Part shown: one piece after another, positions 44,353-51,569 of the stretch
Layout of the letters: each line of letters starts with the position of its first letter
Numbering within the stretch: the stretch's first letter is position 1
IMG/VR virus record: IMGVR_UViG_3300007754_000852
DNA: 64,000 nucleotides
Direction: 5' to 3' (one strand)
Origin: a virus
Lineage: Duplodnaviria; Caudoviricetes
The notes under the pieces: generated by a model
The model's database searches: none
What the model saw: the letters and a program-made list of their open reading frames with translations, nothing else
What the model was told of the DNA's origin: nothing
Program-made: the position numbers and the translations under genes

Positions 44353-45325
44353 ACTTTGCCTCTTTTTTAGCAAGCTTAAGATCATGCTCATACATCATTT
44401 CTGCAAGATTTTTAAATGATACCTTTGGCTTCCACTTGAGATTTGATCTTGCCTTATGTGCATCACCTTCAAGATGTGGAACCTCTTGCGGTCTAAATAA
44501 TCTTTTCTTTATCACAAGATGATCATCAACATCCAGACCAGCAAGGCTAAAAACTTCTTCTAAAAACTCTCTAACTGTATGTGTTTCACCAGTAGCTATC
44601 ACATAATCATCTGGTTCATCTTGCTGGAGCATTAGCCACATTGCCTCAACGTAATCTCCGGCAAATCCCCAATCTCTCTTAGCGTCAAGATTTCCTAGCT
44701 CTATCTTTTGTTGCAATCCCATCTTTATTCTTGCTGCTGCAAGTGTGATCTTCCTTGTTACAAAAGTCTCTCCTCTCCTGGGAGACTCATGATTAAAGAG
44801 AATTCCAGACGATATGTGCATATCATAAGCGTTTCGATAATTTCTAACAAGATGATGTGCAAATACCTTTGAACATGCATAAGGAGATGCAGGTGACAGT
44901 ATTGTTTCTTCATTTTGAGGAACCTCCGGATTATCACCAAACATTTCAGATGATGATGCCTGGTATACCTTTACATCCGATAACATTAGAAGACATGCAT
45001 CTAGAATGTTAAGAGTTCCTAGTGCAACAGTCTTAAGTGTCTCTTCCGGAACATCAAATGATACTCTAACATGTGACTGTGCAGCTAGGTTGTATATCTC
45101 ATCAGGCTGATATTCTTTTAGAAGATAATATAGCCTTCCTACATCATGAACATTTCCATACACTAAATTAAATCTATCATTATCTAAAAGATGATCAATT
45201 CTATCAGTGCAGATTGTCGACGTTCTTCTCTTCATGCCAGTCACCTCATACCCTTTATCTAAGAGTAATTCAGCAAGATATGAGCCATCTTGACCAGTTA
45301 TGCCTGTAATTAATGCTGTTTTCAT
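44339..45325 (-). CDS. gmd: GDP-mannose 4,6-dehydratase (copy 1)
   Basis: [60 protein letters not shown]. Confidence 0.95.
   Translation of the reverse strand: [328 protein letters not shown]
44586..44656. repeat. Direct repeat copy A inside gmd-1 (62 bp exact, 44595-44656; 70/71 over 44586-44656)
   Basis: gctatcacataatcatctggttcatcttgctggagcattagccacattgcctcaacgtaatc is identical to 50842-50903. Confidence 0.95.
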
Positions 45326-46227
45326 TTTAAATTATTCTCTATGTACCAATCATATGTTTTTTTTGCTCCAACAGAAAACGGTGTGAAACAAAAGTTTTTA
45401 TCTAAAAGATTCAAAAGCTCACTATTGCTTCCATCCTTTCTAAATTGACCGTCTAAATTTCCGTTAAATGATATTTTTATATCTTTACCTGATATCTTAA
45501 TAATAATTTTTGCCATCTCTAAAACTGATAGATTTTCATCTGGTGAGACTATTATCGGAATGTCTGACTTGTGATTCACTAAAAGCTCTGGAATAATTCT
45601 ACAGAGATCTGTTACATATAGCTGCTGTCTCAACGGCTTTCCTGTTCCCCATAGCTCAATCGTATCTCCGCTTTTGGACTTAGCAATTTTAGAAATTAAT
45701 GAAGGGACAAAGTGAGATGACTCTGAGTCGAAGTGATCATCAGGGCCATATATGTTTGACGGACAAAATGTAGAATATTCTACATCATGCTGACTTCTAT
45801 ATGATAATGTTTGAATGTATAACATTCTCTTGCTATATCCATATGAAAAATTTGTCTTTGCTGGTGGTCCAGCAAGAATATCACTTTCTGTAAATGGGTA
45901 TGATCTCACAACATCTGGAAAAGCACACGTGCTTAAAGATGACAACAGTCTTTTGACACCTAGTTTATGTGCATTATGGATAATGTTTGTATTGATCATA
46001 ACGTTCTTATGAAAAAACGTCGCCTGATTCTCGAAATTATCTTTAATTCCTCCCACTCTTGCTGCAAGATGAACAACTGCATCTGGGCGTGTGTCAAGAA
46101 ACATCTGTCTTGTTGAATCATCACTAGTTAGATCATAATCTTTAGAAGAAACATACACCCAATCAGGATTGCTCTTTTTTAGGTTTTTACCTACAAAGCC
46201 ATTTCCACCTGTAACAAGAACTTTCAT
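45322..46227 (-). CDS. fcl: GDP-L-fucose synthase / GDP-colitose synthase (Fcl/ColC family)
   Basis: VTGGNGFVG, HLAARVGGI, LSTCAFP, YGYSK, PSNIYGPDD, WGTGKPLRQ, DGQFRK. Confidence 0.88.
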   Translation of the reverse strand: MKVLVTGGNGFVGKNLKKSNPDWVYVSSKDYDLTSDDSTRQMFLDTRPDAVVHLAARVGGIKDNFENQATFFHKNVMINTNIIHNAHKLGVKRLLSSLSTCAFPDVVRSYPFTESDILAGPPAKTNFSYGYSKRMLYIQTLSYRSQHDVEYSTFCPSNIYGPDDHFDSESSHFVPSLISKIAKSKSGDTIELWGTGKPLRQQLYVTDLCRIIPELLVNHKSDIPIIVSPDENLSVLEMAKIIIKISGKDIKISFNGNLDGQFRKDGSNSELLNLLDKNFCFTPFSVGAKKTYDWYIENNLK

Positions 46228-50598: not shown

Positions 50599-51569
50599 AA
50601 GTTTCTCCCTGAAAGTCTTTTTATATCACTTTCAACCATCTTTTTTACAAGACTGTCAAACGTTGTTGTGGGTTCCCATTTTAAAACTGTCTTAGCTTTT
50701 GAATAGTCACCTATTAAGACATCTACCTCTGCAGGTCTCATAAACCTTTCATCTTGTTTGACATATTTTTCCCAATCATTAATTCCAGCATGATAAAATG
50801 CTTTTTCTAAAAACTCTTTTACTGAATGACACTCACCAGTTGCTATCACATAATCATCTGGTTCATCTTGCTGGAGCATTAGCCACATTGCCTCAACGTA
50901 ATCGACTGCATACCCCCAGTCTCTTTTTGCATCAAGGTTTCCAAGAACAATATCATCAGATAAGCCTAAAAAGATTTTTGCCACTCCATCAGTTATCTTT
51001 CTTGTAACAAACTGAATCCCTCTTCTTTCTGACTCATGGTTGAAGCAAATTCCTGAGCAATTGAACATTCCATATGACTCTCTGTAGTTTTTTGTGATCC
51101 AGTGCCCATATAGCTTTGACACACCGTACGGACTTCTTGGATAAAATGGAGTTTTCTCATTTGCAGGACATTCCACAGCCTTTCCGAACATTTCAGATGT
51201 GCTGGCCTGATAAAACCTTATGTTCTTTCCGCTTTCACGAATTGACTCTAACACTCGCAATACTCCTACACCTGTGACACTTGTCGTAAGTCCAGGAGAA
51301 TTCCAGCTTTCACCTACAAATGACTGTGCAGCTAAATTATAAACTTCATCTGGATTACACCTGTTAATTGCTCTAAGGATAGAGTTTTGATCAGTAATGT
51401 CTCCAGATATAAACTCTATTTCATCCTCTATACGTCTTGTATTTTCTCTTATTCGATTTGAAATTCTTCTCTCAAGCCCAAAAACATCATAATCTTTTTG
51501 TAGCAAAAATTCAGCGAGATGGCTTCCGTCCATCCCATTTATTCCGGTTATTAAAGCTCTTTTTTTCAA
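50595..51569 (-). CDS. gmd: GDP-mannose 4,6-dehydratase (copy 2)
   Basis: TTG start. [61 protein letters not shown]. Confidence 0.93.
   Translation of the reverse strand: [324 protein letters not shown]
50833..50903. repeat. Direct repeat copy B inside gmd-2 (62 bp exact, 50842-50903)
   Basis: Identical to 44595-44656; offset 6247 bp. Confidence 0.95.

Follow-up and report, generated by a model that had tools for sequence, protein, structure and literature searches.

The concerted evolution of tufA and tufB is an example of ectopic gene conversion between dispersed bacterial paralogs, and the literature gave nothing specific on a phage equivalent. In Campbell-type direct-repeat (att-like) systems, repeats in the same orientation bracket a multigene block. 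The O-antigen and capsule clusters of Yersinia pseudotuberculosis, Salmonella, and S. pneumoniae exhibit modular evolution by recombination within the cluster (PMC5399914). The locus described here, which can be compared with all three systems, is situated in a 64,000-nucleotide stretch of DNA from the IMG/VR virus record IMGVR_UViG_3300007754_000852 (Duplodnaviria; Caudoviricetes), hereafter the window. It contains two genes of GDP-mannose 4,6-dehydratase (GMD), gmdA and gmdB, which have a perfect 62-bp tract in common, the two copies being spaced by 6247 bp. One short ectopic gene-conversion event without crossover, in the window's lineage only, very probably explains this tract. The gmd patch, a fresh instance of the well-known process of ectopic conversion between paralogs, resembles the tufA/tufB type in being perfect within diverged paralogs, in its paralog-specific flanks, in its location at the most conserved segment, and in its absence from sister lineages. 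Compared with tufA/tufB, however, the gmd paralogs are very divergent (57% nucleotide identity), the patch is short (62–71 bp) and isolated without gene-wide homogenisation, and the locus lies in a phage glycan island.

The two gmd genes are clearly diverged (50% identity in protein and 57.5% in DNA), and in a conserved block of 11 residues near the tract, 7 of the 11 identical residues use different codons, both as stated in a preliminary description of the window. Both proteins pass the cut-off (415) of TIGR01472, the gmd equivalog, with whole-protein scores of 445.6 for gmdA and 418.4 for gmdB. The perfect 62-bp identity given in that description is found again at both positions (Table 1), together with its extension to 70 of 71 identical positions including the right flank; over 161 nt, the identity is 84%. 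Both copies, on the minus strand, start at the first codon position, and hence the same orientation and codon register, also described earlier for the pair, hold. In the following, gmdA-type (A) and gmdB-type (B) genes are distinguished, an A–B pair consists of one of each, the window genes are denoted W_A and W_B, and related loci carry L-numbers. The tract is located in the most conserved stretch of the enzyme, with a peptide that is nearly invariant in all GMDs sampled, and an exact core of 23–26 nt (GTTGAGGCAATGTGGCTAATGCT) in the tract region is common to the A and B copies of relatives. Three lineages have the 23-nt core (alignment columns 678–700) unchanged in most of their A and B copies, L099 being different; the core also constitutes the longest exact run in several cross-genome A–B pairs. 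Met and Trp codons account for most of it, and CTA, an uncommon Leu codon, is included.

More than 70 related loci were collected by protein-identity look-ups and by scans with GTq, the glycosyltransferase gene adjoining gmdB, as the query. Three diverged lineages possess the gene order of the window, GTx-GT2-GTq-gmdB-CT-GT1-DUF2334-ColD-fcl-gmdA-h210-MT-h307, namely L009 (approximately 81% nucleotide identity to the window; gmd proteins 84–85%), L015/L116 (gmd proteins 75–78%; L015 approximately 74% in nucleotides), and L099/L100/L112 (gmd proteins 73–78%, with one extra SDR gene; L099 approximately 70% in nucleotides). The two-gmd arrangement is therefore kept in four lineages, the window included, down to approximately 70% nucleotide identity. 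On both sides of the tract, W_A is approximately 80% identical to the A copy of L009 and approximately 50–55% identical to its B copy, and W_B forms the mirror image. In approximately 25 further lineages, a single gmd follows GTq, and both of its halves are B-type: the N half is approximately 72% identical to W_B and 48% to W_A, and the C half approximately 60% and 35%, respectively. Along its whole length, gmdB is the ortholog of this single gmd adjoining GTq in related phage contigs. Separate trees of the N and C halves, built from 51 sequences including fcl-linked gmd genes from IMG/VR, place all A-type apart from all B-type sequences, with a support of 1.0 (A side) for the split in both; W_A falls among the fcl-linked gmd genes and W_B among those linked to GTq. 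Since the flanks are A-type in gmdA and B-type in gmdB on both sides, the tract is a non-crossover conversion patch. There was no crossover at the tract, the gene arrangement is stable, and there is no reciprocal chimerism, recent or ancestral. The earlier reading, that recombination or gene conversion between the diverged gmd genes left this tract, thus stands in a narrower form, as a lineage-specific patch without crossover; the N- and C-terminal trees proposed there show no reciprocal chimeras.

The relatives also restrict the tract identity to the lineage of the window. Within L009, L015, and L099, the A–B identity over the tract is 81%, 90%, and 81%, respectively, with 6–12 of the 62 positions different, whereas cross-genome A–B pairs range from 74% to 90%; the within-lineage values of the relatives are no higher than this background, so the homogenisation is specific to the window's lineage and younger than the gene arrangement. 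The window and L009 orthologs differ at 10 of the 62 tract positions, and the two window copies at none; by a rough Poisson argument, the event would date to approximately the last third of the period after these two lineages split. In a collection of 5.8 billion proteins, only copies of the window population and the L009 orthologs exceed 79% identity among the best 120 hits listed per gmd. An exact search in IMG/VR gave no second holder of the tract, and an exact search of the tract halves in 185,579 species genomes found none, offering neither an outside donor nor a clue to the host. With gmdA as the query, IMG/VR contains relatives of at most 74% identity, in unrelated contexts, which show that an fcl gene with a gmd gene after it is a frequent pairing in viruses; most of approximately 70 contigs mapped have fcl upstream of an A-type gmd, usually as its immediate neighbour.

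Chance, combined with codon bias on an invariant peptide, could be considered as the origin of the tract, given that the peptide is nearly invariant and that the A–B baseline identity in the tract already reaches 74–90%. Outside the tract, however, identical residues use the same codon in only 55 of 134 cases (41%). In two sets of 3000 synonymous shuffles, with codons resampled either from the usage of the locus or within each gene, the longest exact run has a median of 15 nt and now and then reaches 50–53 nt, the maximum, so that the codon-shuffled alignments named in the preliminary description as a possible source of equally long identity do not produce 62 nt. Calculated analytically from codon usage, a match at all 20 codons has a probability of 1.4e-6; because the tract peptide is unusually conserved, the site-specific codon match rates of other A–B pairs in four lineages were also multiplied, which gives 3e-8 to 6e-8. 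In a Sawyer-type runs test with 613 polymorphic sites, the window pair has 21 consecutive matches, the strongest run of 28 pairs, reached in 0 of 5000 permutations. None of the 15 other A–B pairs exceeds 90% identity in the tract. Moreover, both copies have rare codons in common (CTC 6%, GTG 14%, CTA 19%, TAC 20%), for which codon bias cannot account. The tract identity is not due to chance, and this origin is extremely improbable. A functional element at the nucleotide level, such as a target of a regulatory RNA, a structure, or a protein-binding site, might also keep the 62 bases identical, and three lineages do have a core of approximately 20 nt (GCAATGTGGCTAATGCT), with the uncommon Leu codon CTA, in common between their A and B copies; but 6–16 of the 62 positions are different in relatives whose genes and peptide are the same, L099 differs within the core itself, the core consists mostly of ATG and TGG codons without synonymous alternatives, and the window has no Rfam match, which makes such an element most unlikely. 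A misassembly at the tract, by collapse or by a chimeric join at a shared k-mer path, had been contemplated from the outset, the record being a metagenome assembly and a k-mer graph alone being unable to tell which flanks join across the repeat. Against this, the exact gmdB protein and a 99% identical gmdA protein occur on contigs of several samples from two pipelines (ENA re-assemblies and JGI), and five loci spanning both genes, from at least five assemblies of different samples, match the window at 99.9% identity and repeat its gene order, its spacing of 6247 bp, and the exact tract in both copies; the gene order is, in addition, common to the relatives. In three runs, the Logan contigs (k = 31, as deduced from the contig break points) break at the tract boundaries, where four flanking contigs end, as a two-copy repeat predicts. 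The 62-nt node has depths of 33.8, 158.3, and 30.2 against approximately 19, 86, and 17 in the flanks; this approximate doubling marks it as a real repeat present in two copies, and an artefact can hardly be given any credence.

The preliminary description had suggested that the repeat acts as the hinge of a switch that needs no integrase, leaves no scar, and uses gmd as its attachment site, in which a crossover would excise the 6247-bp cassette and leave one chimeric gmd, and had offered Campbell-type integration of a gmd-bearing circle as an origin of the arrangement. The geometry fits: as in att-like systems, direct repeats in the same codon register stand at both ends of a multigene block, and a precise excision would give a chimera with its reading frame intact. 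A repeat of 62 bp is within the range usable by phage recombinases, and a PD-(D/E)XK nuclease is encoded in the island. Unlike in Campbell-type systems, however, the gmd flanks are not chimeric, with gmdB being B-type and gmdA A-type on both halves even when the single-gmd outgroups are included, and the block contains no recombinase. The absence of reciprocal chimerism argues against integration at gmd, which would have produced such chimeras, and no near-identical protein with discordant N and C halves is present among the best 120 hits listed per gmd (240 homologs for the queries gmdA and gmdB). Four lineages, reaching down to approximately 70% nucleotide identity, preserve the arrangement, and three of them are without the identity tract; the arrangement therefore predates the tract, and the repeat is younger than the arrangement it brackets. 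Single-gmd relatives do exist, as anticipated, but their gmd is B-type on both halves, and the gene-poorer L113, L114, and L138 differ from the window at other boundaries, lacking ColD-fcl-gmdA while keeping CT-GT1-DUF2334. In the contig data, there is no presence/absence polymorphism ending at the repeats, and a gmd directly followed by h210, the deletion product, occurs in none of more than 60 related loci. The Logan contigs leave no part of the window uncovered, and the cassette/flank depth ratios of 0.96, 1.03, and 1.03 in three runs reveal no coverage dip over 44.7–50.8 kb, where one had been sought. Neither the switch nor the integration of a circle is thus borne out in the contig data, and the switch has a very low probability. 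The patch, as a 62-bp direct repeat, could in principle support rare deletion, and nothing indicates that this occurs or is used. That a rare RecA- or nuclease-mediated crossover at this substrate yields a subpopulation without the carbamoyltransferase-GT-DUF2334-ColD-Fcl block is a quite remote prospect; if true, it would entail an altered virion or host glycan and an accidental bet-hedging device resembling phase variation.

For the ectopic conversion without crossover, a series of steps can be proposed. Two gmd genes of separate origin reside in one island, and the ColD-fcl-gmdA triad would have been inserted between DUF2334 and h210 before the four sampled lineages diverged; the gene maps suggest this insertion, and the order of events was presumably insertion rather than loss. 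Homologous recombination would then have copied at least 62 bp, and at most approximately 71 bp, from one gmd paralog into the other. The 23-nt core is the likely recombination seed; strand invasion may have started at the exact core of 23–26 nt, which is long enough for seeding, and may have been followed by short heteroduplex or synthesis-dependent repair, either between copies separated by 6.2 kb on a single genome or between sister genomes during replication. The divergence on either side would have kept the patch short, and with paralogs as divergent as these, the patch is very short. At least one PD-(D/E)XK nuclease in the island is relevant to such a mechanism. The conversion event itself was probably without function.

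Several observations weigh against this account. The tract is 10 positions from the A copy of L009 and also 10 from its B copy, parsimony on synonymous sites gave no direction from donor to recipient, and no relatives at 90–98% identity were found by which the event might be timed. Weaker runs exist at the same place in other pairs (26 nt between L015_A and L015_B, and 35 nt between L009_B and L015_A), which could be older conversions or mere constraint. The permutation test takes sites as exchangeable although the region is unusually constrained, and the site-specific estimate, which corrects for constraint, is based on only 3–4 lineages. Furthermore, the evidence comes from contigs.

Taken as ectopic conversion, the gmd patch is a clean and well-controlled example of how, in a large phage, homologous recombination can act on paralogs with no more than 57% identity, with a conserved seed of approximately 23 nt and a patch of 60–70 bp. 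It also serves as a caution that a perfect direct repeat bracketing a gene block is no evidence of a mobile cassette, the repeat here being younger than the arrangement. By itself, the patch is of little weight, and the surrounding island is the more interesting object.

Similar to the O-antigen clusters, in which sugar modules such as gmd-fcl and the colitose genes are gained, lost, or replaced as blocks with junctions that can lie inside the cluster, the phage contigs exhibit modular presence and absence, for instance of the ColD-fcl-gmdA triad. Unlike in these clusters, the module boundaries are not situated at the two gmd genes, and the tract is not a junction of modules of different ancestry. 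The gene content of L113, L114, and L138 places the natural presence/absence boundary at DUF2334|h210 around the triad rather than between the two gmd genes. In relatives without the triad, h210 is the next of the mapped genes after DUF2334, directly adjoining it in L113; L123, L147, L155, and L175 contain DUF2334 and h210, with no gmd detected. The unit from the carbamoyltransferase to fcl, proposed in the preliminary description, is accordingly not a natural module. Instead, gmdA is part of a self-contained GDP-colitose-type triad (ColD-like, Fcl/ColC-like, and gmd) between DUF2334 and h210, and gmdB is part of the conserved GTx-GTq-gmd backbone common to dozens of related viral contigs.

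Table 1. Positions in the window of the two tract copies, the gmd genes, and the genes between and beside them (aa, amino acids; PLP/PMP, pyridoxal/pyridoxamine phosphate).
Feature	Position	Strand	Remarks
Tract copy 1, exact 62 bp	44595..44656	- (in gmdA)	20 codons and the first two bases of the next codon
Tract copy 2, exact 62 bp	50842..50903	- (in gmdB)	single 62-nt node in Logan contigs
h210: 210-aa protein, no assigned function, downstream of gmdA	43720..44352	-	gene call
gmdA: GDP-mannose 4,6-dehydratase, fcl-linked (A) type, 328 aa	44339..45325	-	Pfam GDP_Man_Dehyd 1.9e-128
fcl: Fcl/ColC-like (GDP-L-fucose synthase-like) short-chain reductase/epimerase, 301 aa	45322..46227	-	Pfam Epimerase
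ColD: ColD-like PLP/PMP-dependent GDP-4-keto-6-deoxymannose 3-dehydratase, 382 aa	46224..47372	-	Pfam DegT_DnrJ_EryC1
DUF2334: DUF2334 protein, possibly deacetylase-like, 236 aa	47373..48083	-	Pfam DUF2334 1.8e-8
GT1: group-1 (GT4-like) glycosyltransferase, 300 aa	48068..48970	-	Pfam Glyco_trans_1_4 and Glycos_transf_1, both weak
CT: NodU/CmcH-type carbamoyltransferase, 541 aa	48973..50598	-	Pfam Carbam_trans_C 4e-61, Carbam_trans_N
gmdB: GDP-mannose 4,6-dehydratase, backbone (B) type, 324 aa	50595..51569	-	Pfam 1e-128
GTq: group-1 glycosyltransferase just upstream of gmdB, backbone marker	51571..52494	-	query for collecting relatives

The content of the block agrees with what had been described before, in the form of a carbamoyltransferase, a GT1/GT4 glycosyltransferase, a DUF2334 protein in the place of the deacetylase, a ColD-like DegT protein, and an fcl-like protein. 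The carbamoyltransferase matches NodU below its cut-off. The fcl-like protein matches NF047922 below the cut-off, and its top solved structure is a GDP-L-fucose synthase (3e-68); it matches GDP-L-fucose synthases, to which the ColC type is homologous, and may be of either type. For the ColD-like protein, the top solved structures are those of ColD/WbdK (2gms and 3gr9, 1e-54). Its residues HH are aligned with the SHH segment of ColD, the position of the Schiff-base (PLP-binding) Lys in aminotransferases; at this active-site position, the protein has the His that replaces the PLP-binding Lys in 3-dehydratases of the ColD type. In L099, L100, and L112, the extra SDR-family gene (approximately 16335–17230) is located between the ColD-like and the fcl-like genes and is 25% identical to gmdB. 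In gmdA, the source population contains strain-level single-base variants at 44984 (C>T) and 45240 (G>A), each in a different run, and the Logan contigs fragment at these sites. One joint from 44695 to 51121, skipping 6425 letters with a shorter side of 20 letters, was dismissed as a cross-match of another organism's gmd because it is out of register with the repeat and below the reliability guide.

The window belongs to a large marine myovirus-like tailed phage, with a glycan-biosynthesis island of approximately 29 kb beside baseplate and tail genes. All genes across 33–64 kb are on the minus strand. The left half contains very large proteins without a Pfam match, a Laminin_G_3 protein, and a baseplate wedge protein with a match to phrog_219; its counterparts in Flavobacterium phage immuto and Microcystis phage Mel-JY01 are 32% identical to it. 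The window has no tRNA genes. The PD-(D/E)XK (Cas4/RecB-like) nuclease is situated within the glycan island at 36305–37141. In the corresponding neighbourhood of L009 (18328–20310), an additional weak DUF7487/Phage_endo_I-like gene and another SDR gene are present, neither of which the window has there. Compared with positions 43.7–54.4 kb of the window, dozens of marine viral contigs (L101–L175) contain a GTx-GTq(-gmdB) core followed by highly variable sugar modules, including carbamoyltransferases, radical SAM enzymes, and extra SDRs, with or without DUF2334-h210. The related phage islands possess an O-antigen-like modular diversity and form a family of glycan clusters in marine phages, in which the GTx-GTq-gmd core is conserved and the sugar modules are swappable. 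In addition, a perfect 51-nt direct repeat (14599–14649 and 14674–14724, 75 nt apart) exists in an open reading frame of 1492 aa (10504–14982, minus strand) among the tail and baseplate genes. It corresponds to a 25-residue peptide repeat with identical DNA, which points to a recent duplication within a fibre-like protein or else to a conversion there.

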